Assembly (NCBI RefSeq): GCF_055900595.2
Contig: NZ_CM148325.1
DNA: 64,000 bases
Direction: 5' to 3' (one strand)
The first letter of the stretch is position 1. The number at the start of each line of letters is the position of its first letter. Under the pieces are notes generated by a model, which did no database searches, was not told where the DNA came from, and was given only the letters and a program-made list of their open reading frames with translations. Positions 3,313 to 36,556 of the stretch are shown here, one piece after another. The position numbers and the translations under genes were made by a program.

Positions 3313-3324
3313 ATAAGCAAAATT

Positions 3325-3395: not shown

Positions 3396-3414
3396 CGCAG
3401 GAACGAGCGTCGCA

Positions 3415-4569: not shown

Positions 4570-4601
4570 CGTGAACGTCTTTTGATGGTCGCGCATGGCT
4601 G

Positions 4602-5090
<489 letters not shown>

Positions 5091-5102
5091 TTAAAAATAA
5101 GG

Positions 5103-5762: not shown

Positions 5763-5871
5763 CGTTAACCTCTGTCTGTCTCTGGAATGAGAGGCAGACT
5801 ACTCGCCGATTGCCATAAGGTAAAAGACTCATTTATGATTAGTTCTATTGGATTTACTTATAGGTTGGCGA

Positions 5872-6771: not shown

Positions 6772-6799
6772 CCGCTGACACAGGTCAGCGGCTGGAATT

Positions 6800-6865
6800 G
6801 CCTGATGCGCGACGCTTATCAGGCCTACGAGTTCAGTGCAAGGCGTTCAAGCCGCATCCGGCATA
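6800..6865. repeat. REP element(s) between cynR and codA
   Basis: gcctgatgcgcgacgcttatcaggcctac and gccgcatccggc motifs. Confidence 0.6.
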
Positions 6866-6891
6866 AACTACGCTCGCTGCAACCCAGCCGA

Positions 6892-9424: not shown

Positions 9425-9589
9425 GAAATTCCCCCTTTTTGCTGTTTGAAACCCAAAAAATCCGCCGCATTCTATTCATCTGAAGATAAAAAGCAATCGT
9501 TTTCGTGGGGGAATATATTTTTTATATGAATGAGTGCAAAAAGGTGGGGGAAAAATTATCGGTGTAAAAACAGTGGGTAGGCATAATAA

Positions 9590-9655
9590 GACGCGGTAAG
9601 CGTCGCATCAGGCATCGGCGCATGGTGTCGGATGCGCCACACGACACATCCGACA
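9590..9655. repeat. REP-like palindromic elements between codB and prpE
   Basis: cgcggtaagcgtcgcatcaggc and gtgtcggatgcgccacacgacacatccgaca palindromes. Confidence 0.5.
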
Positions 9656-9660
9656 ATACC

Positions 9661-11547: not shown

Positions 11548-11586
11548 AATGCTCTCCTGTTGAACTTACGCCTTACCGCCGTTTAC

Positions 11587-21014: not shown

Positions 21015-21971
21015 TTAAACCACCCGATCCAGTCCCAACATGCCGCGAGCCTGAATGAAACAGAGCAGCAACGTTCCCCATAAGGCCATCGTCAGGTAGG
21101 GGCTTATCCCGAGAATATTGAAGCCGCTTTCAATAATTTGCAGAAGAAACAGCGCCAGCACCATACCAATTATCCGCCCGCTGCCGCCGTCCGGATTAAC
21201 CCCGCCGAGTACTGCCGCGAGGATTGACACCAGCAAGTACGATTCGCCATAAGAGGCCTTAGCCGAGTTGAGTTTCGACATCATCAAAAATGCCGCTACC
21301 GCACAAAGCAAGGCGGAAATGACATACACCCATATCAGCACCCGACGCGTGTTAATACCGGAGTAAAGTGTTGCTCGTTCGTTAGAACCAATCAGATAAA
21401 TGGATTTACCGAGCGGCGTTTTCTCCAGCAATATCCACAGCCCCAGCGCCACTGCGGTAAACAACCACATCGGTAGCGGAATACCGAACCACTGTGCATG
21501 ATTCAACCACAGCACCCATGAGGGATAATTGGCAATGGCGCTACCGCCTGTCACCAGAATATTTACCCCTTTGAGCAACGTCATCATCCCAAGCGTTGCA
21601 AGAATTGGCGACACTCGAATACCGGCAATCAATACGCCATTACATAAACCAATTATCACCGCCGCACCAGCGCCCGCCAGCAGCGTAGCGACAACCGTAG
21701 TAATACCCGGCGGATACTGAGTCGCCACCCACGCCATCACCAGTGAACAGGCGTTAGCGGTAGCAATAATTGACAAGTTAATGCCGCCACAAAGCATGGT
21801 CACCGCCATAGCCAACGCCAGAATGCCCAGCACGGGCATTTGCGAAGCGACAGACTGGAAGTTACTTATCGACCAGAAAATCTCCGGCATAGTAATGCTG
21901 AACGCGGCAACAGTTAGCACCAGCAGGCCGATCAAATAAAACTCAACGTTATTACGCCACGATTTTTTCAT
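21015..21971 (-). CDS. sugar ABC transporter permease (CUT2 family, RbsC/LsrD-like)
   Basis: Polytopic membrane ORF; ATG at 21971 overlaps the stop of the upstream permease (ATGA coupling); ORF-track start 22001 is a GTG extension. Confidence 0.8.
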   Translation of the reverse strand: MKKSWRNNVEFYLIGLLVLTVAAFSITMPEIFWSISNFQSVASQMPVLGILALAMAVTMLCGGINLSIIATANACSLVMAWVATQYPPGITTVVATLLAGAGAAVIIGLCNGVLIAGIRVSPILATLGMMTLLKGVNILVTGGSAIANYPSWVLWLNHAQWFGIPLPMWLFTAVALGLWILLEKTPLGKSIYLIGSNERATLYSGINTRRVLIWVYVISALLCAVAAFLMMSKLNSAKASYGESYLLVSILAAVLGGVNPDGGSGRIIGMVLALFLLQIIESGFNILGISPYLTMALWGTLLLCFIQARGMLGLDRVV

Positions 21972-22939
21972 AGCAGACTCCGGTTCTGATGCTGACTCCA
22001 CGCCGTGGCGCTAATGCTGGCAACGATGATGATGCCTGTGATCAATGTTTGCCAGTAAGACGAGACTCCCAATAAATTTAGCCCGTTTTGCATCACTGCC
22101 AACAACACCACGCCGAGCAAAGTACCGGTTAACGTGCCGCGCCCGCCGAGCAAACTAGTGCCGCCAAGCACCACCGCAGCCAGTACTGTCAGCTCATAAC
22201 CCAGAAGAGAATCGGGGGCGACAGTCATCACCGTCCACGACTGCACTACACCCGCAGCACCAGACATCAATCCCATATAGCCGTAAACGAAAAGTTGCAG
22301 TTTCAGCACGCTAAAGCCGATGCGACTGGCTGATTCACGGTTCCCGCCAAGGGCATAAATTTTGCGCCCTACACTGGTGAAATTCATGATAAACGCTGTC
22401 AGCAGCACCACCGTAATCATGGCGATCAGCGGCAGACCAAGGCCATAGTCATAGCCGTCAGCATCGGTGTACTTGAACAACATTACCCCCTGCTCAAACC
22501 ACGGCGGAAAGTCGTACAGCCACACACCTTTACTCAACCATAACAGCAGGCCATAGAAAATATTCAGCGTCGAAATGGTGATGATGATAGAAGGCACCCG
22601 TAGGCGATTAACCAGTAAGGCGTTTATTAAGCCAAGTAAAATGCCGATGCCGCCCGCCAGGGCAAACGCGACAGCAAAGTTGCCACCCATTTTTTGTAGC
22701 AACAGCACCATGCCGTATTGCGCAATGATGGTCATTGCCGGAAACGAAATATCAATTCCACCGGAAATTAACACCACAAACAAACCACAGGCGAGAATAG
22801 TCAACATGGCATAGTTATTGGCGAGATCGTACAAATTACCGAATGTCAGAAACTCGTCGCTGCGCCAGGCAAGGCCAACAAACAGCACTATAATCAGTAA
22901 TGCCAGCCAGAATTCATGGCGTTTTTTCAGTTCAGCCAT
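21968..22939 (-). CDS. sugar ABC transporter permease (CUT2 family, RbsC/LsrC-like), 323 aa
   Basis: Polytopic membrane ORF; start overlaps the ATPase stop. Confidence 0.85.
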   Translation of the reverse strand: MAELKKRHEFWLALLIIVLFVGLAWRSDEFLTFGNLYDLANNYAMLTILACGLFVVLISGGIDISFPAMTIIAQYGMVLLLQKMGGNFAVAFALAGGIGILLGLINALLVNRLRVPSIIITISTLNIFYGLLLWLSKGVWLYDFPPWFEQGVMLFKYTDADGYDYGLGLPLIAMITVVLLTAFIMNFTSVGRKIYALGGNRESASRIGFSVLKLQLFVYGYMGLMSGAAGVVQSWTVMTVAPDSLLGYELTVLAAVVLGGTSLLGGRGTLTGTLLGVVLLAVMQNGLNLLGVSSYWQTLITGIIIVASISATAWSQHQNRSLL

Positions 22940-24416
22940 TTACCACCTCCGCAATCCTGGCCTGAGAACTGCTGTCAGGCAGGAAGCTATGGGTGATCTG
23001 ACCTTTTTGCATTACCAAAATCCGGTGGCTTTGATACCACGCTTCTTCAATTTCATCGCAGATCATCAATACCGCAATGCCATGAGCCGCCAGATCGCTG
23101 ATAATGCCGTATATTCCTGCTTTGTTGGCGATATCAACACCGACAGTCGGGCTATCGAGAATCAACAGTCGTGGCCCAATCGCCAGCCATTTGGCGATCG
23201 ATACTCGCTGCGCGTTACCCCCGGAAAGCGTATTCACCGGGAGATGTGGGTCAGAGACTTTGATGGTCAATGCCTTAATTAGCCTGTCCACCAGGTCACG
23301 CACTTTAGCTTCACTCAGAAAGCCGAAGCGATCTTTTACCTTGTGAAAAACAGTGCTAATGATGTTGTCTTCAATAGATTGCGCCATCACCAAACCGCGC
23401 GACATGCGATCTTCCGAAACATAACCAATACCGTGGCGGATGGCGTCCTGGTTACTATGCAGTGTAACCGGCTGACCGTTGATGAGGATCTCACCAGCAT
23501 CCGGTCGGGTCATACCAAACAGACTCAGACATAATTCCGTGCGCCCCGCACCAAGCAGGCCAACAATCGACACCACTTCGCCCGCTTCCACCCGCAAGTT
23601 AATATTTTGATATTCCCCATGACGACTTAAATTACGCACCTCCAGCACTGGGGTGCTGGATTTTCCCTGCCACAACTCTCGCACCTGATATTCAAACTCC
23701 TGGCCGGTCATCAGGAAACCGAGTTGTTTTGTGGTCATCTCTGCAGCCGGAAAGGTCCCGACCAGCTCACCATCTTTCAACACTGAAATACGGTCGGAAA
23801 CTTCCATCACCTCTTCCAGACGATGACTGACGAAGACCACGCAGATCCCGCGTTCCCGCAATTGATGCACCACCTGTAATAACCCTTGCACTTCCTGATG
23901 GGTCAGCGAAGCGGTTGGTTCATCCATCACGATCAACCGTGCGTCCTGCGCCAGTGCACGGCAAATTGCCACCAGCTGACAGCGGGCAATTGAAAGCTCA
24001 GAAACGAGCGTATCCAGTGGCAATGTGACGTTAATACTGGTCATTGCCGCCTGCGCCACCTCACGCAGACGACGTCGGTTAACAAACAGTCCGTGGTGAT
24101 AGTGATTCACGGCGATATTCTCCCAGACACTCAGGTTAGGAAATAAAGAGAGGTCCTGATAAATCACCTGAATCCCCTGCGCCACCGAAGCGGCGGGTGT
24201 CAGCTTTGACCAGTTTTTCCCACCAAGCGTAATTTCCGCCCCCTCATCCGGGCGATAAACACCGGACATAATTTTAATCAACGTCGATTTACCACAGCCG
24301 TTTTGCCCGGCAAGGCAGTGCACCTCACCCGACATAAAGTCGAGAGAAACATCGCGCAGCGCTCGCGTGGCATGAAACGTTTTGTTGATATGACGAAGGG
24401 AAAGGAAGGTTTCCAT
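22932..24416 (-). CDS. sugar ABC transporter ATP-binding protein with duplicated ABC domains (RbsA/LsrA-like)
   Basis: Walker A GQNGCGKST, signature LSGGNAQR and a second ABC domain; ATG at 24416 (METFLSLRH...) preferred over the TTG at 24431. Confidence 0.85.
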   Translation of the reverse strand: METFLSLRHINKTFHATRALRDVSLDFMSGEVHCLAGQNGCGKSTLIKIMSGVYRPDEGAEITLGGKNWSKLTPAASVAQGIQVIYQDLSLFPNLSVWENIAVNHYHHGLFVNRRRLREVAQAAMTSINVTLPLDTLVSELSIARCQLVAICRALAQDARLIVMDEPTASLTHQEVQGLLQVVHQLRERGICVVFVSHRLEEVMEVSDRISVLKDGELVGTFPAAEMTTKQLGFLMTGQEFEYQVRELWQGKSSTPVLEVRNLSRHGEYQNINLRVEAGEVVSIVGLLGAGRTELCLSLFGMTRPDAGEILINGQPVTLHSNQDAIRHGIGYVSEDRMSRGLVMAQSIEDNIISTVFHKVKDRFGFLSEAKVRDLVDRLIKALTIKVSDPHLPVNTLSGGNAQRVSIAKWLAIGPRLLILDSPTVGVDIANKAGIYGIISDLAAHGIAVLMICDEIEEAWYQSHRILVMQKGQITHSFLPDSSSQARIAEVVNG

Positions 24417-24464
24417 AGCATCCCCTGGCAATAAGAATCGGGGCTTTCGCCCCGAAGAAATGGA

Positions 24465-25451
24465 TTAATAAAGTGAGTCAATATTGTCTTTGTTGACCAG
24501 TAATACCTTATGGAAACGGATAATTCGCTTATCCATATCTACGTCGGCCTTACCGAGATTCTCCATTTCTAATCCAGGTTTGATCTCTTCACCCTTCAGC
24601 AACGTGCTGGCGACGGCCGCGAGTGCGTAACCTGCAGAGGCCGGATCGTAAGTAATCCCTTCGGTGATATCACCACTTTTAATCAATGATGCCGCCTGTG
24701 AAGGGATCATCATGCCATAGACTGCGACTTTATTTTTCGCCCGTTTCTCTTTCACCGCACGTCCCGCGCCAATCGGACCGTTTGAACCAAAGGAGACAAC
24801 CGCTTTCAAGTCAGGATAGGTTTTCATCAGGTCCAGTGTGGTACGACGTGAGTCATCCACACTCTCGGCAACCGGCATGCGGCGGGTAACTTCATGCATA
24901 TCCGGGTAATGCTCTTTCTGGTATTTCACCAGCAAGTCAGCCCATAAGTTATGCTGCGGCACGGTCAAACTACCCACATAAATCACATAGCCGCCCTTGC
25001 CACCCATGCGTTTCGCCATATGTTCAACATATTCAGCGGCAAATTTTTCGTTATCAATGATTTCGATATCCCAGTTAGCACTTGGCTGACCGGGGGATTC
25101 GTTGGTCAGAACCACAATTCCGGCATCTCGCGCTTTTTTGAATACCGGTTCTAGCACGTTGGCATCGTTTGGCACGATAGTAATTGCGTTAACCTTACGA
25201 GCGATTAAATCCTCAATAATTTTAACCTGTTGCGGAGCATCAGTACTTGAAGGTCCCACCTGTGACGCATTAACCCCAAAGGCTTTACCTGCCTCGACCA
25301 CACCTTCGCCCATGCGATTAAACCACGGCATACCATCGACTTTAGAGATATTCACCACGACTTTTTCCGCTGCCTGGAGCGGCGAGGAAATTAGCGCAGC
25401 GCCTAATAACAGCGAAGACACCATATTGATAACAAAACGTTTATTCATCAT
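24465..25451 (-). CDS. periplasmic sugar-binding protein (RbsB/LsrB-like), 328 aa
   Basis: Signal peptide MMNKRFVINMVSSLLLGAALISSPLQAAE; type I periplasmic-binding-protein fold; C-terminal NKDNID motif resembles LsrB as recalled. Confidence 0.8.
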   Translation of the reverse strand: MMNKRFVINMVSSLLLGAALISSPLQAAEKVVVNISKVDGMPWFNRMGEGVVEAGKAFGVNASQVGPSSTDAPQQVKIIEDLIARKVNAITIVPNDANVLEPVFKKARDAGIVVLTNESPGQPSANWDIEIIDNEKFAAEYVEHMAKRMGGKGGYVIYVGSLTVPQHNLWADLLVKYQKEHYPDMHEVTRRMPVAESVDDSRRTTLDLMKTYPDLKAVVSFGSNGPIGAGRAVKEKRAKNKVAVYGMMIPSQAASLIKSGDITEGITYDPASAGYALAAVASTLLKGEEIKPGLEMENLGKADVDMDKRIIRFHKVLLVNKDNIDSLY

Positions 25452-25701
25452 TTCAGCCTCATTGCAGGGTAGTCAGGAAGTGTTCGCCCAAATTAGCGCG
25501 CTGGAGAGAATAAGAATTTTCGAATATTTTTATGCAGAATAAACAGCCCTATTTCAGGCAGCTATTAAAAATTTGGTTATAAATATGGACAAAACGGGCA
25601 GTAACAATAAGTGTGACAATCATCACGTAAAAAATAGCAAAATAAACAAAATTAGCGATACTTTATGTTTATGAGCTTATTTCGCGTAGAAAAATAGTTA
25701 T

Positions 25702-26112
25702 CTACACAATGTCAATAAGGGCATATTCTTCAAAGATAACGTCCATTTCGGGTGAATAGCATCCTTCTGCCTGGAAAAAACGACGGTGTTCATTACGCCA
25801 ATATTCAAGACTGAGGTCACCTTCACCTTCCTTACGGGCAAGCTCCGCGGTGACATCAGAAAAGCGCAGTAAATGCAGGCCAATAACTCTGATAACACAT
25901 ACAGGCTCACCACGGCTATTTTCTACAATCTTATACTCACCAATCATCGGAAATGCGTTGTCTTCAATACATCCCGCCAGCGAACCACAGGAAGCTGTTT
26001 TAACACCAGTCGCAATCAACGTTGCGAGGTGATCGGCCAACGCTTCTGAATCGCCAAAAGTACAAAAGGAAGCATGGGGATATTTTTGTGAGATTTTTTC
26101 TTTTATGGTCAT
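25702..26112 (-). CDS. ASCH-domain-like small protein
   Basis: ORF 25702..26145; ATG at 26112 (MTIKEKISQ...) or GTG at 26145; assignment by sequence resemblance only. Confidence 0.5.
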   Translation of the reverse strand: MTIKEKISQKYPHASFCTFGDSEALADHLATLIATGVKTASCGSLAGCIEDNAFPMIGEYKIVENSRGEPVCVIRVIGLHLLRFSDVTAELARKEGEGDLSLEYWRNEHRRFFQAEGCYSPEMDVIFEEYALIDIV

Positions 26113-26408
26113 GAGAATATTTTCGCGATTACGGAAAAAAATCACATCTTAATTACTGTTGATAACCATCAGCAAGAGGATCATTGGTTTTTCTATGTTT
26201 AATCTTTTTTATCCGAAGCAGGTCACATTTATGGCTTGATAAATACCTTTGTTAAAACTCACTTTTGTGTATTTCTCTCAAATAATCCCCTGGAAATTAT
26301 GCCGGGAGATTATAAAGTTCAGGATCATTCATTAACAAACCATTCCCGCCCCACTCCCTGGGGCTTAAATCTCTTACTATTCACCGTTGCAGGCGTTTCA
26401 AATTCGTA

Positions 26409-27791
26409 TCAACCTGCCACACTCCCCCACACCATTTGCCCTTTATGGAACGTTGCGGTTCTCGGCGAGATACGCGCCACCGCCTCGGCGGAACAGGAGG
26501 CGTCCACCAGCACAAAGCTGGCGTCATCCTGCGCTTTAGGCCAGACGCGCTCGCCTTTTTCGTTGAGCGGCAATACATCACCAGTGGCTAAAAACAGCGA
26601 GCGGGACAAATTCTGTTCGTTAGGACGAATATAGAGCTGCGCGTACAGATTGGCTTTTTCCAGCATGTCGCCCAGGCCGTAAGGCGACCAGTGGTCGATA
26701 ACGCTGTCGGTGCCGGTCATCACTTTTACGCCTTTGTCGTGCAGCTGTTTGAGCGGCATATGCAACGTGCCAATCGGCACCGTCGAGGCGATCGAGATTT
26801 GCTGCGCCGCCATCCGGTTCGCCAGTTCATCTACTTGTTGCTCGTTGAGGGTAGCCAGCGCAAAGGCGTGGCTGATGGTCAGCTTGCCTTTTAGCTGCGG
26901 CGTTTTCTCCACTGTTTCAACCATATAATTGATGGCTGCCACGCCCGCCGGAGTGGTTTCGTGCAGATGAATATCGACGCCTTTGTCGTAGTCCAGCGCA
27001 ATCTGGAACATGGTGTCGAGGGATTTTTCCATCGCGCCATCAACACTGGTCGGGTCCAGCCCGCCGACGTAATGCGCGCCTGCCTGCATTGCTTCACGCA
27101 TCAAGGGTTCCGATTTCGACAGCAGCAAACCGTGCTGCGGGAAGGCGACGATTTCACACTCGAAGCCCGCCTGACGTCGCGCCAGCACCGCCTGCAAATT
27201 TTGCAGATTTTTCAGGCCGGAAACCGGTTCGATATTGCAGTGGCTGCGGGCAATGGTGGTGCCTTTCGACTGCAATAAATCGATCAGTTTTTCTGCCCGC
27301 TCCTGCGTGTAGGGTTGCAGTTCCGGCAGCATTTTTTGCTCGAGTTTGATCATGTCCTGGATAGTGGTGCCTGCCGGGCGATTGAGCGAGCGCCACGGCC
27401 CACCGTAAAAGGTTTTGTCGAGATGAATATGCATGTCGCGGGTGGTGGGCAGCATCAGCTTACCGCCAGCGTCATAGTGCGGCAGCGTGGCGTCCGGATG
27501 CTGCTTGTTCTCGCGCAGCGCGACAATTTTGCCGTCCTGAATCTCCACGGTCTGGCGCGCCGTGCGGGTCTGCACCGCCACGCCATTTTCATAGTCAAAA
27601 CCGGTTTCCAGCAGCACGTTGTCGAGATAGTAGTGCGGGTCAGTGATTTTCATGGTGTTATTCGCGTCGCAGTGGGTGGTGCCAGAGACCTCCGCATGGG
27701 CGAATGGCACAGAGGTACCAAACAGCGCGGCGGCGGTGACCATCTTACCGCTCTGGCTCAAAAACTCACGACGGCTATTGTTTTCTTTCAT
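26409..27791 (-). CDS. yahJ: Tat-signal amidohydrolase/deaminase family protein, 460 aa
   Basis: N-terminal twin-arginine motif SRREFLSQSGKMVTAAALFG; metal-dependent amidohydrolase fold. Confidence 0.85.
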   Translation of the reverse strand: MKENNSRREFLSQSGKMVTAAALFGTSVPFAHAEVSGTTHCDANNTMKITDPHYYLDNVLLETGFDYENGVAVQTRTARQTVEIQDGKIVALRENKQHPDATLPHYDAGGKLMLPTTRDMHIHLDKTFYGGPWRSLNRPAGTTIQDMIKLEQKMLPELQPYTQERAEKLIDLLQSKGTTIARSHCNIEPVSGLKNLQNLQAVLARRQAGFECEIVAFPQHGLLLSKSEPLMREAMQAGAHYVGGLDPTSVDGAMEKSLDTMFQIALDYDKGVDIHLHETTPAGVAAINYMVETVEKTPQLKGKLTISHAFALATLNEQQVDELANRMAAQQISIASTVPIGTLHMPLKQLHDKGVKVMTGTDSVIDHWSPYGLGDMLEKANLYAQLYIRPNEQNLSRSLFLATGDVLPLNEKGERVWPKAQDDASFVLVDASCSAEAVARISPRTATFHKGQMVWGSVAG

Positions 27792-27800
27792 CTTACGTCC

Positions 27801-28751
27801 TTACGTTTTAATAATATGGGTGCCCGTCTCGCCACGCAGCGCCGCGGGCAGGCATTCCGGCGTGGTGATAATCACTTCTTTGCCGCCCTGTTCTAAAAAT
27901 GTCAGGCTGGCGATGATTTTTGGCAACATGCTGCCAGGCGGGAAATGCCCTTCCTGCATATAGCGGGTCATGGTGGCAATATCCACCCGATCCAGCGCCT
28001 GCTGCTGCGGTTTGCCAAAATGAATACAGACTTTTTCCACGCCGGTGGTGATCACCAGAATGTCGGCGTGAATTTCGCGGGCCAGCAGCGCGGTGGAGAG
28101 ATCTTTGTCGATAACCGCGTCCACGCTTTGGTAATCTCCCGCGTCAGTACGCACCACCGGAATTCCGCCACCGCCCGCACCAATCACCACAAACCCTTGT
28201 TGGATCAGCGCTTTAATGGCAGGTGCTTCAACAATACGTTTCGGTTCCGGCGAGGCGACCACGCGGCGATAGCCGCGTCCGGCATCTTCAACAAAACGCC
28301 AGTCAGGGTTTGCCTTTTGTAATTCGTTACGCTGGCTTTCACTGAAGAATGCGCCAATGGGCTTGGTGGGGTGAGCAAACCCCGGATCGTTTTTATCCAC
28401 TTCCACCTGAGTCACCACAGTGACGGCTTTTTTCTCGCCGTGGCGCGCCAGCCGATTGTTCAGCGCCTGTTGGATCAAGTAGCCAATGCCGCCTTGCGTA
28501 TCTGCCACACAGTTCGCCAGCGGCGTTAAGGGCAGCCCTTCGCGCTCGTGGGCAATCTCCGCACGGCGTAGATCCAGCCCAACCTGCGGCCCGTTGCCGT
28601 GGGTCAGCACAATGTCGTAATCGGAAGCCAGCATTTCCAGCACCGTCTCGGCGACGGCCTTCACCGCCTCCGCCTGATGCTCAATCGACTGGCTGGCGTT
28701 ATCTTTGATAATGCTGTTGCCACCAATGGCAACGACCACAAGTTCTTTCAT
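27801..28751 (-). CDS. yahI: carbamate kinase-like protein, 316 aa
   Basis: Amino-acid kinase family N-terminus MKELVVVAIGGNSI... Confidence 0.85.
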   Translation of the reverse strand: MKELVVVAIGGNSIIKDNASQSIEHQAEAVKAVAETVLEMLASDYDIVLTHGNGPQVGLDLRRAEIAHEREGLPLTPLANCVADTQGGIGYLIQQALNNRLARHGEKKAVTVVTQVEVDKNDPGFAHPTKPIGAFFSESQRNELQKANPDWRFVEDAGRGYRRVVASPEPKRIVEAPAIKALIQQGFVVIGAGGGGIPVVRTDAGDYQSVDAVIDKDLSTALLAREIHADILVITTGVEKVCIHFGKPQQQALDRVDIATMTRYMQEGHFPPGSMLPKIIASLTFLEQGGKEVIITTPECLPAALRGETGTHIIKT

Positions 28752-28789
28752 GTTGTTATGTCCGCTACAGAGGGTGATGGGGTTATGAC

Positions 28790-29160
28790 CAACGCCAGAC
28801 AGCCTGATGCGCTACGCTTATCAGGCCTACAGATTCTTGTGCCATTCGTAGGCCGGATAAGGCGTCCACGCCGCATCCGGCAATGGTGACAAATGCCTGA
28901 TGCGCTACGCTTATCAGGCCTACAGATTCTCGCGCCACTCGTAGGCCGGATAAGGCGTTCACGCCACAACCGGCAATGGTGACAAATGCCTGATGCGCTA
29001 CGCTTATCAGGCCTACAGATTCTTGCGCCACTCGTAGGCTGGATAAGGCGTTCACGCCGCATCCGGCAATCGTGACAAATGCCTGATGCGCTACGCTTAT
29101 CAGGCCTACAGATTCTTGCGCCACTCGTAGGCCGGATAAGGCGTTCACGCCGCATCCGGC
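28790..29160. repeat. Tandem BIME/REP array, 4 copies of a 93-bp unit
   Basis: gcctgatgcgctacgcttatcaggcctac recurs at 28802, 28895, 28988 and 29081, each followed by an inverted REP gtaggccggataaggcgttcacgccgcatccggc; ORF 28748..29263 across it is a translation artefact. Confidence 0.9.
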
Positions 29161-29183
29161 AGAGACAACGCGCACTTTGCAGG

Positions 29184-30602
29184 TCAGACACCGTAACGTT
29201 CGCACCAGCCAAGAATGGCTTTTTCGAAGCAGGCGAATGGTGGATGCACAATGCCCGCGCCAATCATGCCGACGCCCGCATCTTTATGGGCAATGGCGGT
29301 GTTGATCACCGGCAGAATGCCACTGCTACCCACGCGGGTGATGTCGATTGCCGTCGGCACACCCATAAAACCGAGCAGCGGAATGGTCACGTTGGGGTTT
29401 TCGCCGAGAGTGATTTCGCGCATCTGACGGGAGAAATCGATAGCCTCTTCCACCGTACCGCCCACCAGCGCGACGATTGCAGGCGCGGTCGCCATCGCAA
29501 ATCCACCAATGCCGTAGGTTTCGGTGATGGCGCTGTCGCCAATATCCAGCCCCGAATCTTCCGGCTTATAACCGGCAAACATCGGGCCGATGACCTGTTG
29601 CGCCGGGCCGGTAAACCACTGCCCCGGCAGGCCGCTGACTCGCAGGCCGAACTCGACACCGTTACGCGCCATGGTGGTCACCACGGTGCTGTATTCAATG
29701 CCGTGCGCCGCATCCATCGCTGCTTTACACATTGCCATCCACGTCGGGCCGGAGAAGTAATCGCTGCTGGCGACAAACTCAAACACTTCACGCTGTTGCT
29801 CGACAGAATAGCCCGCCTGAATAATCCCCGGCGTCAGCGCCTGAATCAGCAGCGTCGTCCCGGCGTTATTGCGGTTATGGCATTCATCTCCCATATGCAG
29901 CGCCTGCGCCAGCATTAAGCGCAGATCGATTTCGCCGATAATTTTCATCGCGTCGCGCAGCATGGGCCCCTGCACATCGCGCATCCAGTTGAGGCGGTCA
30001 ATCACGCTCTGATCGTTGGCACCCATACGCAAAATCTTCGCCATCTGCTCGCTCATATTGGTGTAAGCGATGTTGCCGTAGGTTTTGTTTTTCACGATGT
30101 GCATAAACATCGAGGCCGAGGTAACACCCGCCATCGAACCCACGCAGTCGTGCTCGTGGCACGGCGAGAAGGTGATCTCCCCGGAAGCCGCCAGTTCGGC
30201 CGCCTCGTCGAGATCTTTCGCCAGCCCTTCGAACACCAGCGCCCCGGTGACCGCGCCTTTCATAGCGCCGCACATTTTTTCCCAGGTCACTGGTGGCCCG
30301 GCGTGAAGAATGGTTTTCGCCGTCATGCCAGGCACCACGTTAATCGCCTGATCAAAACCAATCAGCACCGGATGCGACTGGATAATGCGTTCCAGCGCCT
30401 GCTGGTTAGCGGCGGCGATTTTGTCTGCCAGCGGCGAATCGGCAATGTTGTCCAGCGCCTGCACCACCTGCATATTGCCCTGCCCCGGCGGCGTCCAGTC
30501 GAGTTGGGTCACTTCTACATGCTGCTTTTTCAGATCATCGCTAAACATGGCGATGCCGACGTTAATAACGTTCAACGGTTGGCTAAACAGTGACGGACTC
30601 AT
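29184..30602 (-). CDS. yahG: DUF1116-family protein, 472 aa
   Basis: ATG overlaps the yahF stop (ATGA); paralog of ylbE-type proteins. Confidence 0.85.
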   Translation of the reverse strand: MSPSLFSQPLNVINVGIAMFSDDLKKQHVEVTQLDWTPPGQGNMQVVQALDNIADSPLADKIAAANQQALERIIQSHPVLIGFDQAINVVPGMTAKTILHAGPPVTWEKMCGAMKGAVTGALVFEGLAKDLDEAAELAASGEITFSPCHEHDCVGSMAGVTSASMFMHIVKNKTYGNIAYTNMSEQMAKILRMGANDQSVIDRLNWMRDVQGPMLRDAMKIIGEIDLRLMLAQALHMGDECHNRNNAGTTLLIQALTPGIIQAGYSVEQQREVFEFVASSDYFSGPTWMAMCKAAMDAAHGIEYSTVVTTMARNGVEFGLRVSGLPGQWFTGPAQQVIGPMFAGYKPEDSGLDIGDSAITETYGIGGFAMATAPAIVALVGGTVEEAIDFSRQMREITLGENPNVTIPLLGFMGVPTAIDITRVGSSGILPVINTAIAHKDAGVGMIGAGIVHPPFACFEKAILGWCERYGV

Positions 30603-32149
30603 CAGGCTTCCTCCCCTTTGCAGATAAATTCACGCGCCAGCAATCCGGTGTTGGTGCTACTGCTCGCCAGAATCACTCCGGCATCAAGCAGCATCTGGCT
30701 TTGTTGTGCTAACGATGGCGTATCGAGATCGGTACCCAGCACATAGGCGAGAATGATCAACTCGCGGCCTTCGGCGGCAGCGATCGCTTTCGCTTCTTTG
30801 ATCGCCTTGATGGTGGAACCGACCGGATCTTCATGCGATCCAAATCCGAGCACAAAATCCATCACGATCACCGCCACTTCTGGATCACGTGCTTCTTCGA
30901 TCAAGCGACTGATGCGATTGGTCGGGTCAATCATTGGATGCGGCTTGCCGTTGGTGAAGTCGTCATCGCCAAAGTCGAGGAAGGTATGTTTGATGCTGCG
31001 GTTGATATCTTGCAGGCGGAATTCAGGATCGGGCTGGATGTTGCTGTAGACATCGCCGTGTTTTTCCATCACTGCGAACATGGTTTCGTCGCACAGTGTG
31101 CCGCCGCAGAACAGGCCACGAATGTATTTCTGCTGCGGTTGCAGGCGAGCGCGCACATCCGCAATCAACGGCTGGTTCAGGGTATGCAGGTCGAGATGTT
31201 CTTGTTTCACGCCGGAGAGCATCACCGCTTTCAGTGCCGCCTCTTTGCTGCCGCGAGCAAACTGTAGCCCCTGCTCATCCACTGGCGTTTCGCCACGACC
31301 GAGGAAGCAGACCACCACCGGCTTGCGGCAGGCGCGTGCGCGTTCCAGCACTTTGCGGGCCACCGCAGGCGCAGGCGGTTTGGAGATAAGTACAATGATT
31401 TCAGTTTGCGGATCGTTTTCCAGCATCCCGATAGCGTCGAGCATCATCAGGCCGCCGATTTTCTCGCTCAGGTCGCGCCCGCCGGTGCCAATCAGTTGCG
31501 AAACGCCGCCGCCAAATTCATGAATACGGACGCTCAGTTCCTGGCTACCGGTGCCGGATGCGCCAACAATACCGATGTTGCCGCGACGCACAGCGTTACC
31601 AAAGCAGAGCGCCGCGCCGTTGATAATCGCCGTGCCGCAGTCTGGCCCCATCATCAGCAGCCCTTTTTCGTGGGCCAGTTGCTTGAGCGCCAGTTCATCT
31701 TCAACTGAGACGTTATCGGAAAACAGCATCACGTTAAGATCGTTTTGCAGCGCCTGACGCGCTTCGCGAGCGGCAAACAGACCGTTGACCGAAATCACTG
31801 CCAGGTTACTTTCCGGGATATGCTTTTTGGCGCTGGCAATAGTGGCGTAACGCGCCTCGTGCGAGCCACTTTGCGCTTTGCTGTTGAACAGTTCTTCAAT
31901 CTCCACCAGCAACTGCTCGTTGTCTGCGCCCGCTTTGCCGTTGATGACAATCATCAGGTCGCCGTTTTTCGCCTGCTCCAGCTCCGGCGTCAGCAGCCCT
32001 AAATTCTTCAGCACGCCTTTGTTCATTTCGGTCGCCATCGCCACAAATGCCTGCTCGACGCCGTCGAGTTTATTTGCACGCGTGGAGATAGACATCAGCG
32101 AGACAGAATCAAAATAGGTATTCGGTTTAATGACTATTTTAACTGACAT
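30602..32149 (-). CDS. yahF: FdrA-like CoA-binding protein (succinyl-CoA synthetase alpha-like fold), 515 aa
   Basis: 515-aa ORF resembling FdrA; translationally coupled to yahG. Confidence 0.85.
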   Translation of the reverse strand: MSVKIVIKPNTYFDSVSLMSISTRANKLDGVEQAFVAMATEMNKGVLKNLGLLTPELEQAKNGDLMIVINGKAGADNEQLLVEIEELFNSKAQSGSHEARYATIASAKKHIPESNLAVISVNGLFAAREARQALQNDLNVMLFSDNVSVEDELALKQLAHEKGLLMMGPDCGTAIINGAALCFGNAVRRGNIGIVGASGTGSQELSVRIHEFGGGVSQLIGTGGRDLSEKIGGLMMLDAIGMLENDPQTEIIVLISKPPAPAVARKVLERARACRKPVVVCFLGRGETPVDEQGLQFARGSKEAALKAVMLSGVKQEHLDLHTLNQPLIADVRARLQPQQKYIRGLFCGGTLCDETMFAVMEKHGDVYSNIQPDPEFRLQDINRSIKHTFLDFGDDDFTNGKPHPMIDPTNRISRLIEEARDPEVAVIVMDFVLGFGSHEDPVGSTIKAIKEAKAIAAAEGRELIILAYVLGTDLDTPSLAQQSQMLLDAGVILASSSTNTGLLAREFICKGEEA

Positions 32150-33002
32150 AATTCCCTCCGTAGGTTTGGCTCAGCGCACAACCATCGGCCATGCCATACA
32201 GCATGTCGCAGCCGGAACTGGAGCCAATATGTTTAATTTTTTCTATTGCCTGAGTTGCGTTCCCAGGTATGTCATAAATAATGTTATGAATAAAACGATG
32301 AATATTTTCCCGGCAGCGTTGTTGTAATGCGGCTTCCAGCGTTATGGCACTTAATAACGTGGTATTATTTCTGCCGCGTTGCAGACCGAGATAAAATTCC
32401 TCTTTGTATTTTTCCGCCGGATGCCCGGGAATAAATAAAATAAGCGCCAGACCTGTTAAATAATCGTCGGCTGATGGCGTAAGGCCAATCCCTAACCCCA
32501 TCATACTGACGACCGCTGAGGCGATATTTTGTTTATCGTTTACTGCCTGAATAACTGCCCGTCGTTTAATATGTAATTCTTTATTTAACGCCTGATAAAA
32601 CGGATTATCGCCACAATAATTAAACAGGGTTTCATTTTCCCCCAGGTGTTGATGAATAATGTCGTGCCACTGTTGCCAGGCGATAAGGTGAAAATTTTCA
32701 GCGGTCATTTGCAAAGCGGGGGACAGCCAACGCTGGCAATGACTCATCTCTATATGAAGATGTTGACCAACCGTAATACCTTGATCATCAAACTGAACCT
32801 TATCACCATGACGGAACAGACCATCAAAGTGAGTGAGTGCCAACCGACAACTGTTTGGCGCATTGTCGTACTCTTCACAAAGCAGTGTCAGCAACTGCTG
32901 GCGAGCCGGGATTGCGATATTTACCGCTCTGGCAAAGACCTGTTCAACTTGTCCTTGCCCCCGCTGCGCCAGAAAATCAGCATCCGCAGTTAGCGCCCAC
33001 AC
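32139..33002 (-). CDS. yahE: DUF2877-family protein, 287 aa
   Basis: 287-aa ORF with GTG start at 33002; overlaps the yahF start by 11 nt. Confidence 0.8.
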   Translation of the reverse strand: MWALTADADFLAQRGQGQVEQVFARAVNIAIPARQQLLTLLCEEYDNAPNSCRLALTHFDGLFRHGDKVQFDDQGITVGQHLHIEMSHCQRWLSPALQMTAENFHLIAWQQWHDIIHQHLGENETLFNYCGDNPFYQALNKELHIKRRAVIQAVNDKQNIASAVVSMMGLGIGLTPSADDYLTGLALILFIPGHPAEKYKEEFYLGLQRGRNNTTLLSAITLEAALQQRCRENIHRFIHNIIYDIPGNATQAIEKIKHIGSSSGCDMLYGMADGCALSQTYGGNYVS

Positions 33003-33041
33003 ACACCGTCTTTCTGGTGTGTTGATAGCAAACCTCCCGGT

Positions 33042-33647
33042 TTATGCGCCTGCGGCAATCAGCAACTGAGCAATCTCTTCAAAGCCCCGTTCCCGCGCCA
33101 GTTCCAGCGGCGTTTTGCCATATTTGTCGGTCAGATGCGGGCTGGCACCGTGCTCCAGCAATAACTGGACAATCGCCTGCTGTTTAATCCCGCCATCGTT
33201 AAGCACAATCGCTTCCAGTAGCGGCGTCCAGCCAACATGGTTGGTCTGGTTAACGTTAATATCCGTATGCGCCAAAAGCTCTTTTACAATACTTAAATGG
33301 CCTTTTTCACAGGCAGGCGTCAGGCCGACACCGCCGAAACGGGTTACACAATTAAGGTCTGGTTTAGCCGGTAAAATAATTCGTAGTAGCGTTAAATCAC
33401 CGTTCAGGCAACTCATTAAAAAAGGATTTAAACAGGTCTGGTCTTGTTTATTAATATCCGCACCGGCATCAATTAACGCCTGAACGCAAGCATATTGCTG
33501 ATATAAACTTGCCAGCGTAATTGCCGTTTTCCCCTGGCGATCGCAGGTATTTATATCTACCCCCAGAGCAAGGCAGGTTTTTACTTTATCGATATCACCC
33601 TGTTGTGCAGCCAATAAATAATCGGCAGGTAGATTTTTTATACTCAT
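33042..33647 (-). CDS. yahD: ankyrin-repeat protein, 201 aa
   Basis: Ankyrin repeats visible (GADINKQD..., TPLLEAIVLNDGG..., HGASPHLTDKYGKTPLELA); ATG at 33647. Confidence 0.85.
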   Translation of the reverse strand: MSIKNLPADYLLAAQQGDIDKVKTCLALGVDINTCDRQGKTAITLASLYQQYACVQALIDAGADINKQDQTCLNPFLMSCLNGDLTLLRIILPAKPDLNCVTRFGGVGLTPACEKGHLSIVKELLAHTDINVNQTNHVGWTPLLEAIVLNDGGIKQQAIVQLLLEHGASPHLTDKYGKTPLELARERGFEEIAQLLIAAGA

Positions 33648-33904
33648 TAACATTCCCCTGTTTTTTGTGGCTGTTTTCGATGAATTGAGAATAGCAACGA
33701 TAATCTGATAAAAGAACCCGCTTAAATTTAATTCGCCGTATTTCGCCTTTTTGTTGAATGATGTTCAACAATCTTTTCGCAGTGTGCGGTAGTGCAATAT
33801 TTGTTTCTTTGACCCGATACCCTTTCACTCAATCAGGTTTTATTTCTCTATAGTCTGCACATGTAAGAGTAGCTTTCGTCCATGTCTAACCAGAGGGGAA
33901 CAAG

Positions 33905-34402
33905 ATGAACGGACTCACGGCAACGGGTATAACCGTCGGTATTTGTGCAGGGCTTTGGCAGTTAGTGTCTTCACATGTCGGGCTCTCTCAGGGATGGGAA
34001 TTATTAGGAACCATTGGCTTCGTCGCCTTTTGCAGTTTTTATGCCGCAGGCGGCGGTAAATCGGGGTTTATCAGAAGCCTGGCGGTTAATTATTCCGGGA
34101 TGGTGTGGGCGTTTTTCGCCGCGCTGGCTTCCGGTTGGCTGGCCTCGGTGAGTGGGCTTTCCGTGTTCTGGGCAAGCGTGATGACTACCGTGCCTTTCTC
34201 AGCTGTAGTGGTCTGGCAAGGGCGTTTCTGGTTACTGTCATTCATTCCCGGAGGCTTTCTCGGCATGACGCTGTTTTTTGCCAGCGGGATGAACTGGACG
34301 GTGACATTACTGGGTTTTCTGGCGGGTAACTGCGTGGGAATAATTTCAGAATATGGCGGACAAAAATTAAGCGAAGCGACGACTAAACGCGACGGGTATT
34401 AA
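33905..34402 (+). CDS. yahC: small inner-membrane protein, 165 aa
   Basis: Hydrophobic 165-aa ORF divergent from yahD. Confidence 0.8.
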   Translation: MNGLTATGITVGICAGLWQLVSSHVGLSQGWELLGTIGFVAFCSFYAAGGGKSGFIRSLAVNYSGMVWAFFAALASGWLASVSGLSVFWASVMTTVPFSAVVVWQGRFWLLSFIPGGFLGMTLFFASGMNWTVTLLGFLAGNCVGIISEYGGQKLSEATTKRDGY

Positions 34403-34493
34403 AAGTTATTCAAAAATGATTATCTATCTTTAACCGATACCTCTACAGTCATAGCTGGAGAAATTCATAGTAGATAATGGCGGGAATGGTTTA

Positions 34494-35426
34494 ATGAACT
34501 CAATTTTTACCGAAGAGAATCTGTTGGCATTTACTACCGCTGCGCGTTTTAGCAGCTTCAGTAAAGCGGCAGACGAGTTGGGTTTAACCACTTCCGCCAT
34601 TAGCTACACCATCAAGCGAATGGAAACAGGGCTGGATGTGGTGCTGTTCACTCGCAGTACCCGCAGCATTGAGTTAACGGAGTCCGGGCGTTATTTTTTC
34701 CGCAAAGCTACCGACCTGCTGAATGATTTTCACGCCATCAAACGCAGCATCGATACTATTTCGCAGGGCATAGAAGCGCGTGTGCGTATTTGTATTAATC
34801 AGCTGCTTTATACGCCCAAACACACCGCACGCTTATTACAGGTACTGAAAAAGCAATTTCCAACCTGCCAGATTACCGTCACCACCGAAGTGTATAATGG
34901 CGTCTGGGATGCGATTATTAATAATCAGGCGAATATCGCTATCGGCGCACCCGACACGCTGCTGGACGGCGGCGGCATTGATTACACGGAGATTGGCGCG
35001 ATTCGCTGGGCTTTTGCTATCGCCCCGGATCACCCGTTAGCCTTTGTGCCGGAACCCATCGCCGAAAGCCAACTGCGTCTCTATCCTAATATCATGGTGG
35101 AAGACACCGCGCATACGATTAATAAAAAAGTGGGCTGGTTGCTGCATGGGCAGGAGTCGATTCTGGTGCCAGATTTCAACACCAAATGTCAGTGCCAGAT
35201 TTTAGGCGAAGGAATTGGTTTTTTGCCGGATTACATGGTCCGTGAGGCGATGGCGCAATCCCTGCTGGTTACCCGACAAATCCATAATCCGCGCCAGGAT
35301 TCACGCATGTTACTGGCGACCCAGCACTCTGCCACCGGTCAGGTGACGCAGTGGATTAAAAAACAATTTTCGCCAAATGGCATATTAACGGGGATCTATC
35401 AGGATTTACTGCATCGGGAGAATTAA
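34494..35426 (+). CDS. yahB: LysR-family transcriptional regulator, 310 aa
   Basis: LysR HTH N-terminus (FTTAARFSSFSKAADELGLTTSAISYTIKRME); 310 aa. Confidence 0.88.
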   Translation: MNSIFTEENLLAFTTAARFSSFSKAADELGLTTSAISYTIKRMETGLDVVLFTRSTRSIELTESGRYFFRKATDLLNDFHAIKRSIDTISQGIEARVRICINQLLYTPKHTARLLQVLKKQFPTCQITVTTEVYNGVWDAIINNQANIAIGAPDTLLDGGGIDYTEIGAIRWAFAIAPDHPLAFVPEPIAESQLRLYPNIMVEDTAHTINKKVGWLLHGQESILVPDFNTKCQCQILGEGIGFLPDYMVREAMAQSLLVTRQIHNPRQDSRMLLATQHSATGQVTQWIKKQFSPNGILTGIYQDLLHREN

Positions 35427-35467
35427 TCGCTGCCAACCTCCCGATGCGCTGTGAATAGCGGTTTACA

Positions 35468-36556
35468 TCAACCACCTGCTTTCATTACCCATTCAGAGAT
35501 AAATTTATTACCCGGTACCGGCGGAGAGTACAAATAGCCCTGCAAAAAGTGTACGCCTTTACCAATCATTAAATCCGCCTGTTCCTGAGTTTCTACCCCT
35601 TCCGCCACAATACTCAGACCAGGCTTACGCGCCAGTTCGACAATATTGTCCACAATATGACCGGAGATTTCGTCAACACTCGCCATTTGCACAAACGACT
35701 TGTCAATTTTAATAAAATCGACCGGAAACGCCTGCAGATAACGATAGGTCGCATAACCCGTACCAAAGTCATCCAGCGCAAAGGTAATGTTGTGCTGATG
35801 AAGGCTGTCAAATATCGCTCTGGCTTCTGGCGTTACCGGAATGGGGTTGCGTTCCGTTAGCTCAAGAACCAGCTTGATTTTATCGTTACCTAATTTCTTG
35901 ACCAGGTTCAGACACTCTTTTTCAAATCCTGCGGCCAAAAAACATCCTGCCGAGACGTTGATTCCAATATGGAAATTATCCGGCAGCAAATGTTTTACTG
36001 GCATCAGAATATCCGCAGTCTGTTTCATCAGCTGGCGAGTCATTATGACAATAAGACCGGATGACTCCGCCAGAGGAATAAACTGATCCGGTGGGATAAT
36101 TCCCGTTTGCGGATGTTCCCAGCGGACAAGCACTTCACAGCCCGTCAGTACCCCAGTCTGCGCGCAGAAAACCGGTTGGATCCACGGTTTGAATTCGTGA
36201 TTTTCCAACGCCAGACTGATGGCTTCAGGCGTGACGATATGGTGATAGTGATTATCATTAATATATTTGTGACTATTATTACCCGTGGCGGATATGATCT
36301 CCGGATTGTACTGAAAGAAAATATCCCGCCAGAAAGTAATATCGCTCTGAATCCCCAGTTTCTCAAAGAGCTGTTTCTTTTGATGTGAAATGGTCTTTGC
36401 ACTGCGATTTCTGTACTGTGATATTTCTGTTACAGACATTCCCTGCATCAGCAGCTTGAGTAGCAGTCGTTCTTTCTCGGATACGCTACCAGGCAATGAC
36501 AAATGAACCGTTGTACCGAACTCTTGCAGAAAAACACGAAAATCACATGAATTCAT
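35468..36556 (-). CDS. pdeL: c-di-GMP phosphodiesterase with N-terminal LuxR-type HTH and EAL domain, 362 aa
   Basis: LuxR-type HTH followed by an EAL domain (ELTE motif); ATG at 36556 (MNSCDFRVFLQEFG). Confidence 0.9.
   Translation of the reverse strand: MNSCDFRVFLQEFGTTVHLSLPGSVSEKERLLLKLLMQGMSVTEISQYRNRSAKTISHQKKQLFEKLGIQSDITFWRDIFFQYNPEIISATGNNSHKYINDNHYHHIVTPEAISLALENHEFKPWIQPVFCAQTGVLTGCEVLVRWEHPQTGIIPPDQFIPLAESSGLIVIMTRQLMKQTADILMPVKHLLPDNFHIGINVSAGCFLAAGFEKECLNLVKKLGNDKIKLVLELTERNPIPVTPEARAIFDSLHQHNITFALDDFGTGYATYRYLQAFPVDFIKIDKSFVQMASVDEISGHIVDNIVELARKPGLSIVAEGVETQEQADLMIGKGVHFLQGYLYSPPVPGNKFISEWVMKAGG

Follow-up and report, generated by a model that had tools for sequence, protein, structure and literature searches.

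The yah operon of Escherichia coli probably encodes a ureide-to-ATP module, in which a distinct and widespread orthogroup of phosphorolytic carbamoyltransferases of the AllFGH class, here called Yah-type, is coupled to a carbamate kinase; we give this reading a probability of roughly 0.55. The operon was studied in a stretch of 64,000 nucleotides of contig NZ_CM148325.1 (hereafter the window), where six co-directional minus-strand genes, yahD, yahE, yahF, yahG, yahI and yahJ, occupy positions 26409-33647 (Table 1). From homology, synteny, conservation, catalytic residues and an export signal we infer a reaction and its direction, a subunit role for YahD and a substrate other than oxalurate. 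In the proposed scheme, YahF and YahG, with YahE and YahD as partners, would transfer the carbamoyl group of a ureide (an N-carbamoyl or N-acylurea compound) to phosphate, and YahI would convert the resulting carbamoyl phosphate and ADP to ATP, NH3 and CO2. The ureide would enter through a permease of the UraA fold in most lineages, through an NCS1 carrier resembling allantoin permeases in others, and by a different route, possibly YahC, in Escherichia. In Enterobacterales it would be produced or trimmed in the periplasm by YahJ, predicted to be exported by twin-arginine translocation (Tat), and YahB would activate the operon from a conserved palindrome upstream of yahD.

Relationship to the AllFGH transcarbamylase

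The reference for this class is oxamic transcarbamylase. According to the sections of Kim and Kim 2024 (PMC11326118) used here, deletion strains and purified proteins identify it as AllF-AllG-AllH: the purified AllF-containing enzyme interconverts oxalurate with carbamoyl phosphate and oxamate, loss of allH leaves 1.2 mM oxamate, and a triple deletion carrying only an allFG or only an allGH plasmid produces 7% and 16% as much oxamate as the wild type (Table 3 of that paper). AllK is the catabolic carbamate kinase (PMC9843812). In BLASTP searches against the K-12 allantoin-cluster proteins, YahF paired with AllF (39% identity, E 8e-103), YahG with AllG (45%, E 1e-119) and YahE with AllH (25%, E 5e-10). 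At the level of family models, YahE matches Pfam PF11392 (now named AllH; E 3.5e-28), YahG matches PF06545 (now AllG; E 6e-89), and YahF scores 490.6 bits against the NCBIfam model FdrA (cut-off 433) and carries the Pfam domains CoA_binding and Ligase_CoA; the NCBIfam scan returned no model for YahE, YahG or YahC. Among solved structures, YahF matches 3dmy (FdrA; E 8.8e-83) and YahG matches 3clq (E 3.5e-196, about 68-70% identity), itself an uncharacterised entry, and YahE, with an AlphaFold2 model of high confidence (predicted local distance difference test, pLDDT, 93.5), has no solved structural relative. The preliminary description of this DNA had called YahE, YahF and YahG paralogues of the fdrA-ylbE-ylbF genes, a proposal that would fall if no homology to those families could be found; the search was run, and the proposal survived it.

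Like the enzymes of the AllFGH class, the Yah system consists of three separate, co-encoded subunits of the AllF (HMA_AllF_N, CoA_binding and Ligase_CoA), AllG and AllH families, with a catabolic carbamate kinase gene, yahI, in the same operon. What it lacks is orthology to AllF, AllG and AllH themselves and a place in the allantoin regulon, next to allDCE and under the control of AllS and ArcA. YahG, the most conserved component, has orthologues that are 68-99% identical across Proteobacteria and Firmicutes: 88% in Aeromonas, 79% in Janthinobacterium and 77% in Brevibacillus and Paenibacillus, against 45% for the AllG of the same species. Among 3364 representatives of the family (clustered at 50%), one full-length protein exceeded 50% identity to YahG, at 76%, the other matches above 50% being truncated or partial, and the next full-length relatives lie at or below 50%. 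By these comparisons Yah is a separate, tightly conserved orthogroup, forming one cluster at 50% identity. A relative is encoded in 475 species, according to a pattern scan of 100,044 species genomes.

Judging from gene layout and sequence, F and G form a unit. Their genes overlap by 1 nt, and at least 10 cluster representatives are natural single chains of about 1000-1095 aa in which F is followed by G (P0132, P0134, P0136-P0138, P0141, P0144, P0148, P0186 and P0203, the G part starting at the position of YahG residues 4-13). In addition, residues 2-53 of YahG align with AllF 504-554 (E 7e-7), suggesting that a module of about 50-55 aa has crossed the gene boundary between the Yah and All systems.

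The domains of YahF lend themselves to another interpretation, namely that it is an acyl-CoA synthetase or another CoA-dependent enzyme and that the cluster carries out a chemistry other than carbamoyl transfer. Its Pfam CoA_binding and Ligase_CoA domains, its RefSeq product name ("acyl-CoA synthetase FdrA") and the original argument of the CanOE authors for FdrA all point that way. However, the paralogue AllF has the same domains and is part of the purified enzyme that interconverts oxalurate, for which the sections of PMC11326118 used here describe no CoA dependence; most of the lineages examined have a carbamate kinase gene in the cluster, exceptions being the loci of Enterococcus type and of Trichococcus; and the phosphohistidine loop of the succinyl-CoA synthetase alpha subunit, GHAGA, was sought in YahF and is not present at the aligned position. 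The motif G-K/R-P-H-P-M-I-D-P, conserved in YahF and common to AllF, is a candidate in its place. We regard a CoA-dependent enzyme as extremely improbable.

Ankyrin partner, kinase and hydrolase

The neighbourhood of the three subunits was compared in a table of the best 80 loci found by tblastn, with subsets of 78, 75 and 71 in which a given feature could be assessed. The common enterobacterial layout is a divergent yahB followed by yahD-yahE-yahF-yahG-permease-yahI-yahJ. The core of this layout, a LysR-type regulator opposite ankyrin-E-F-G-permease-carbamate kinase, recurs in Aeromonas, Janthinobacterium and 55 enterobacterial species, and in Aeromonas allosaccharophila and Janthinobacterium it occurs as a kit without yahJ.

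YahD is recognised as an ankyrin protein in the NCBIfam scan and in the RefSeq annotation. Its gene is syntenic with E-F-G in 78 enterobacterial and Aeromonas loci, and also in Janthinobacterium, Aeromonas, Brevibacillus and Trichococcus; overall, among the groups examined, the Enterococcus-type locus is the only one where no ankyrin protein goes with E-F-G. The YahD homologue of Paenibacillus and Peribacillus (35-37% identity, E about 1e-40) is encoded after the G gene and has a C-terminal extension, with an ankyrin- and TPR-like character and no Pfam call. These proteins of 381-397 aa, with no match in Pfam, had been candidates for carriers and were rejected when BLAST returned them as YahD homologues. 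Synteny thus defined makes YahD a near-universal core partner of the Yah orthogroup across phyla, and we propose that it is a dedicated fourth component, or subunit, of the Yah-type carbamoyltransferase.

YahI belongs with the kinases of NCBIfam PRK12352 (648 bits, cut-off 266), is 38% identical to AllK (YbcF; E 1e-57) and is syntenic in 76 of the 80 loci, which is where the proposed ATP-forming step would be placed.

The last gene of the operon, yahJ, encodes a protein of NCBIfam PRK06846 (717 bits), with the AtzC-like entries 6nbo and 2qt3 and CodA as its nearest solved structures. Residues H121, H123, Q219, H275, E278, H308 and D362 of YahJ align with H61, H63, Q156, H214, E217, H246 and D313 of CodA, in the numbering of the published CodA structures, and all are invariant in nine sequences except E278, which is Asp in four Firmicutes homologues. 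YahJ thus carries the signature of the cytosine-deaminase/AtzC type: HxH, the strand-5 His with an acidic residue three positions on, the strand-6 His, the strand-8 Asp and the substrate-contacting Gln. It is not CodA proper, as Asp314 of CodA is replaced by Ser363 and the cytosine deaminase models, with cut-offs of 403-483 bits, give it 72-104. Its N-terminus, MKENNSRREFLSQSGKMVTAAALFGTSVPFAHA, reads as a Tat signal, combining an S/T-R-R-x-F-L motif with a hydrophobic segment and an AxA site for cleavage, and the twin-arginine motif (two Arg, then x-F-L/I) is conserved in the 17 orthologues examined. YahJ also appears in a list of E. coli Tat substrates, with no function assigned there (PMC7549933).

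A YahJ orthologue follows the kinase in all 71 assessable enterobacterial and Aeromonas loci. The Trichococcus and Peribacillus clusters encode cytoplasmic homologues (36-44% identity), and in Brevibacillus and Paenibacillus an unrelated deaminase of the CDA fold takes YahJ's place. Since deaminases that are not homologous recur in this way, it can be argued that hydrolytic deamination belongs to the Yah pathway. We propose that YahJ is a Tat-exported, periplasmic amidohydrolase of the CodA/AtzC type, predicted to prepare the substrate by hydrolytic deamination. The preliminary description had taken both the ankyrin protein and the Tat amidohydrolase for unusual additions to the operon; the first is instead a conserved core partner across phyla, and the second a recurrent accessory of Yah loci.

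Transport and the gap between yahG and yahI

In most lineages a membrane protein of 517 aa is encoded between yahG and yahI. Its AlphaFold2 model (pLDDT 83) matches SVCT1, BicA, SLC26, UraA, AZG and UapA with a probability of 1.0 and a template-modelling score of about 0.5, the class features compared being the inverted-repeat fold of 7+7 transmembrane helices and membership of a nucleobase-specific subfamily. The names "xanthine permease" and "AGZA family" come from source-database annotations only. As the UraA/SLC26 fold serves for nucleobases and ascorbate in some carriers and for small anions in others, it does not settle the class of substrate. Brevibacillus and Paenibacillus have an NCS1 carrier instead, for which the best model is allantoin permease, with a score below the cut-off.

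Across 71 species loci, 55 have the permease alone and 16 have yahC alone; none has both and none has neither. Escherichia, Pseudocitrobacter, Kluyvera, Raoultella and their relatives are the group without a permease, and in them yahC lies between yahB and yahD. It is possible, on this distribution, that YahC took over transport in Escherichia. The yahC group looks like one clade, however, so that a single replacement event is probable and the evidence for a transport role is weak.

The place where most other lineages have the permease gene is filled in the window by an array of repetitive extragenic palindromic (REP) units, which gives three above-threshold matches to Rfam naRNA4 (28851-29106, plus strand, opposite to the operon). 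The "hypothetical protein" that RefSeq places at 28783-29148 on the minus strand, yahH in K-12, consists of translated repeats and is a phantom open reading frame (ORF); in the y-ome paper yahH is said to be full of REP sites (PMC11551758).

Such a gap raises the question of whether the Escherichia chromosomal operon is a cryptic remnant, which lost its carrier, gained a REP array and no longer serves any pathway, the functional versions being those of other genera and of plasmids. The permease is indeed absent, with no trace of it found by tblastn in the yahG-yahI gap, the 432-nt stretch of repeats lies in mid-operon, and a complete copy is present in addition in 141 E. coli genomes. The sole reported phenotype is a small competitive defect of a Delta-yahJ mutant of extraintestinal pathogenic E. 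coli in mice (competitive index 0.70; PMC7549933). Nevertheless, the six ORFs are intact both here and in K-12, where the same operon is found. Moreover, of 5426 complete E. coli genomes, 4586 contain 80% or more of the 10-kb region 26000-36000. In E. albertii the DNA is about 91% identical to the window throughout and the proteins are 97-99% identical (YahD, YahF, YahG, YahI and YahJ; 93% for YahE), and this excess of protein over nucleotide identity indicates that the yah genes are under purifying selection. The promoter footprints described below are conserved too, and yahC is present exactly where the permease is missing. A cryptic remnant is, in our opinion, distinctly improbable.

Regulation

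YahB is 38% identical to AllS (E 1e-71), and its best NCBIfam matches are AllS (265.6 bits, under the cut-off of 372) and PunR. By sequence, then, AllS, which activates the allantoin/oxamate branch, has its closest paralogue in YahB, suggesting that the regulator was duplicated along with the enzymes. Its gene is divergent from yahD in all 75 loci in which that flank is present; in the Yah-type loci of Firmicutes, PucR-family regulators replace the LysR type.

The region 5' of yahD holds several predicted regulatory elements: a perfect palindrome with 9-bp arms, ATTGTTGAA-N4-TTCAACAAT (33750-33772), which occurs once in the window against 0.02 expected; a dyad, TGC-N6-GCA (33785-33796); and GTTGCTATTCTCA (33686-33698), which resembles an extended -10 element. 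These footprints are conserved from Escherichia to Providencia, Zophobihabitans and Aeromonas. A scan for consensus sigma-70 promoters found none upstream of yahD, and no minus-strand terminator was found inside the operon. The lack of a consensus promoter at yahD fits an activator-dependent one, and we propose that the palindrome region is a putative YahB operator together with such a promoter.

Mobile copies and the nature of the substrate

A second, complete module (LysR opposite ankyrin-E-F-G-permease-carbamate kinase, without yahJ) is present in 141 of 5426 E. coli genomes, flanked by insertion sequences. Its proteins are 92-96% identical to those of Citrobacter, and 105 of its 150 copies are on plasmids; about 70 plasmids in PLSDB have it with at least 99% identity, and most plasmids that match are predicted to be conjugative. 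One example lies at 3143-11576 of the locus from plasmid pMTY1886_IncF (L093) and another in a chromosomal island (L094), and the hosts include human, pig and chicken. Since the mobile module encodes no enzymes beyond the transferase and the kinase, the imported compound is itself, most simply, the carbamoyl donor.

That donor could be oxalurate. Yah would then be a second oxamate carbamoyltransferase, with the reaction of AllFGH-AllK and an exogenous supply: free oxalurate, for example from oxidised purines or parabanate, would be imported and fermented to oxamate and ATP. The three-subunit family and the kinase are the same as in All, the minimal kit of regulator, carrier, transferase and kinase fits a ready-made acylurea such as oxalurate, and the fold predicted for the permease is common to anion carriers, including an oxalate-binding protein of SLC26. 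The Enterococcus-type protein 3clq is Yah-like, and oxalurate fermentation through an oxamic transcarbamylase was reported for enterococci in the 1980s. Set against this, the identity of Yah to All proteins is 25-45%, compared with the 68-99% seen among Yah orthologues across phyla; the two systems coexist under separate regulators; and the conserved deaminases and ankyrin partner would have no role in a scheme limited to oxalurate. Furthermore, Delta-allF, Delta-allG and Delta-allFGH strains of K-12 make no oxamate despite an intact yah, the oxamate-forming step being blocked (sections of PMC11326118 used here). A second oxamate carbamoyltransferase therefore seems unlikely to us, and the separate orthogroup, the distinct accessory genes and the failure of yah to replace allFGH in K-12 suggest that a Yah-type enzyme has a substrate other than oxalurate.

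The Enterococcus-type locus itself (L088, 7362-12379) holds the exact 3clq sequence. In the assembly used, its AllG-type gene is split (77 + 384 aa) and its AllH-type gene encodes a short protein of 230 aa; neither an ankyrin gene nor a kinase gene lies close by, and an unannotated 393-aa membrane protein follows, 68% identical to one from Trichococcus.

Points against the proposed function, and its implications

Several observations weigh against a Yah-type ureide-to-ATP module. YahI falls just under the threshold of the arcC equivalog model TIGR00746 (348.7 bits, cut-off 358.25). The chromosomal operon of E. coli has a REP array in mid-operon and no permease, and the permease of other lineages matches nothing in Pfam or NCBIfam, even when 40 homologues were scanned one by one, and no PDB sequence. 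Its "nucleobase-like" label is not established, the modelled fold being common to anion carriers, and a nucleobase-like compound could serve only as a ready-made ureide, since the Yah kit conserves no ring-opening enzyme. A lack of yah expression would account equally well for the inability of yah to replace allFGH. The literature searched gives no function for any yah gene and lists the Yah proteins among y-ome genes. Finally, yahE is missing from 25 of 78 species, and yet AllH is needed for full oxamic transcarbamylase activity.

The losses of yahE, which leave the rest of the operon intact, are found in Enterobacter, Leclercia, Lelliottia, Silvania, Huaxiibacter, one Serratia and Aeromonas cavernicola, with just about 150 nt between yahD and yahF in the Enterobacter/Leclercia/Lelliottia group. 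The loci concerned are L036, L038, L039, L042-L044, L046-L055, L057-L062, L064, L069 and L084 (for example L052, 7649-9995). YahE also evolves faster than any other component: in the enterobacterial and Aeromonas loci its identity is 35-96%, and that of YahG 86-99%. These natural losses, and the residual oxamate made without allH, suggest that the H/E subunit is not strictly essential. The same residual oxamate raises the possibility that Yah subunits cross-assemble with All subunits.

As for what was known, the locus, the family assignments and the paralogy itself are already in databases. The papers on AllFGH, AllK (PMC11326118, in the sections used, and PMC9843812) and the regulation of allF never mention yah. 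In the literature searched we did not find the Yah-type variant with its ankyrin partner, the carrier and deaminase linked to it, the loss of the carrier and gain of yahC in Escherichia, the lineages without yahE or the complete plasmid-borne copy. If the proposed function is correct, it would give a role to the y-ome block from yahB to yahJ and a second substrate class to a transcarbamylase family recognised only in 2024. It would also provide a rare instance in which a bacterial metabolic enzyme is constantly paired with an ankyrin-repeat protein, and would explain the presence of a seven-gene version on IncF plasmids of E. coli from humans, pigs and poultry.

Locus and conservation in E. 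coli

Positions 26000-36000 of the window are E. coli DNA, 100% identical to NZ_CP098223.1, from a canine isolate, and the RefSeq annotation there shows the same genes. In that annotation the operon is bordered by pdeL/betT on one side and yahK on the other.

Table 1. Features of the yah locus, in window coordinates
Feature	Position	Strand	Description
yahJ	26409-27791	-	amidohydrolase; Tat motif SRREFL
yahI	27801-28751	-	carbamate kinase subfamily PRK12352
REP array (bacterial interspersed mosaic element, BIME)	28802-29161	not assigned	93-nt unit, 3.9 copies (TRF); fills the yahG-yahI gap
yahG	29184-30602	-	AllG family PF06545 (formerly DUF1116)
yahF	30602-32149	-	AllF/FdrA family; CoA_binding and Ligase_CoA domains resembling succinyl-CoA synthetase alpha
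yahE	32139-33002	-	AllH family PF11392 (formerly DUF2877); GTG start
yahD	33042-33647	-	ankyrin-repeat protein, 201 aa; first gene of the operon; RefSeq start (mechanical ORF begins two codons earlier, at 33653)
Predicted regulatory region 5' of yahD	33686-33796	-	phylogenetic footprint
yahC	33905-34402	+	small membrane protein, DUF1097; ORF and RefSeq annotation
yahB	34494-35426	+	LysR-type regulator

The layout largely bears out the preliminary description. All six genes are co-directional, with the domains given there (YahD ankyrin, YahE DUF2877, YahF FdrA, YahG DUF1116, YahI carbamate kinase-like, YahJ Tat amidohydrolase), and yahC and yahB, co-directional on the plus strand, do lie alongside and divergent from yahD. 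Its tight or overlapping junctions are right for four of the five: yahD and yahE are 39 nt apart, yahE and yahF overlap by 11 nt, yahF and yahG overlap by 1 nt, and yahI and yahJ are 9 nt apart. The fifth, between yahG and yahI, is the 432-nt gap filled with REP units; the preliminary description mentioned neither this gap nor the lack of the permease gene that lies there in most other lineages.

Two further features of the region were noted. Between yahK and yahJ the window carries, at 21015-26145, a gene for an ASCH-domain protein (25702-26145) and four genes of a sugar-type ABC transporter, namely for a binding protein resembling RhaS/LsrB, an ATPase and two permeases; in K-12, yahK directly follows yahJ. 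The operon is also a mosaic. The segment from window position 26417 to about 32300, which spans yahJ up to the 3' end of yahE with the REP units, shares 94-98% DNA identity with the Pseudocitrobacter locus L010, against 60-77% for yahE, yahD and yahC and 81% for yahB. The break at about 32300 (compared segment 32300-34400) coincides with a step in GC content from 56-59% to 45-49%, and the mosaic implies that Escherichia and Pseudocitrobacter recently exchanged the yahF-yahJ segment.

Relation to known systems

The closest parallel is AllFGHK, which shares with Yah the three protein families, the carbamate kinase, a LysR-type regulator resembling AllS and the translational coupling of F and G, and both systems would make ATP by way of carbamoyl phosphate. 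They differ in sequence (25-45% identity), in gene order (E-F-G in Yah, F-G-H in All) and in the location of the module of about 50 aa, at the N-terminus of YahG and the C-terminus of AllF. The ankyrin partner, the linked carrier and deaminase genes and the placement outside the allantoin genes are features of Yah, which does not replace allFGH in the K-12 deletion strains.

Other members of the class have other neighbours. Genes resembling allFGHK adjoin the trtA/biuH (triuret/biuret) genes in metagenome-assembled genomes of comammox Nitrospira (PMC12625717). On a metagenomic contig (L092, 7614-11428), a PF09663 gene of the cyanuric acid hydrolase/barbiturase family (AtzD/TrzD; E 3e-103) takes the position of AllH, directly upstream of AllF-like and AllG-like genes. 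That this protein might be an AllH in disguise was considered and rejected: it has no sequence similarity to AllH and is a genuine member of PF09663. These clusters contain the same enzyme class as Yah, in other subfamilies, with at most 48% identity to YahG (48% for the relative on L092) and different neighbours; an ankyrin partner is absent from the metagenomic contig and is not among the genes listed for the comammox contigs. Taken together, the AtzD-family and triuret/biuret neighbours suggest that the AllFGH class as a whole acts on acylureas.

In Trichococcus collinsii (L089, 12971-14239), a 422-aa protein with three tandem RidA/YjgF domains (PF01042) is encoded after the Yah-type cluster, and single-domain RidA genes lie near PucR regulators in Brevibacillus (L003, 2297-2677) and Trichococcus (L089, 1533-1910). 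According to the part of PMC3758960 used here, the AtzD fold is a concatenation of three YjgF-like units, and by this analogy the tandem protein may be relevant to the Yah pathway.

Within E. coli, a table of PMC3349570 lists genes under the names yahE, yahF and yahG in the tkt1 island of avian pathogenic E. coli (APEC) O1, alongside genes for a permease, a carbamate kinase and a hydrolase of the isochorismatase family, which suggests that the pan-genome of the species holds at least four modules of the AllFGH class. The third E. coli cluster linked to a carbamate kinase, ygeW-yqeA, likewise pairs an uncharacterised carbamoyltransferase-like protein with a carbamate kinase paralogue and is suspected to act in purine-related catabolism (PMC4016543, PMC3423039); YgeW, however, is of the classical transcarbamylase fold, with no relation to YahEFG.

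YahJ shares the amidohydrolase subtype of AtzC (N-isopropylammelide isopropylaminohydrolase) and CodA (cytosine/isoguanine deaminase), with HxH, Gln, His (and Glu), His and Asp kept. It is 23% identical to CodA, in which Asp314 has no conserved counterpart in YahJ, and differs from it in its predicted Tat signal and periplasmic site. A tentative extension of our proposal starts from this enzyme. Yah could be a fourth "deiminase-type" pathway of substrate-level phosphorylation, in which a periplasmic iminohydrolase of the CodA/AtzC type would make a ureide from an amino- or guanidino-heterocycle, for which an oxidised purine or pyrimidine product or a creatinine- or triazine-like compound can be considered; a four-component carbamoyltransferase with an integral ankyrin subunit would phosphorolyse this ureide to supply the kinase, and the mobility of the module on conjugative plasmids would reflect a gut fitness trait. 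We consider this possible, if doubtful. The scheme proposed for Yah resembles, in its overall logic, the arginine and agmatine deiminase pathways (arcABCD and aguBDAC), which also combine an iminohydrolase, a carbamoyltransferase, a carbamate kinase and a carrier and obtain ATP and ammonia from a nitrogen-rich compound. The parts, however, are not homologous: the Yah transferase does not have the fold of the aspartate and ornithine transcarbamylases, and the Yah hydrolase belongs to the amidohydrolase superfamily and is predicted to be periplasmic.

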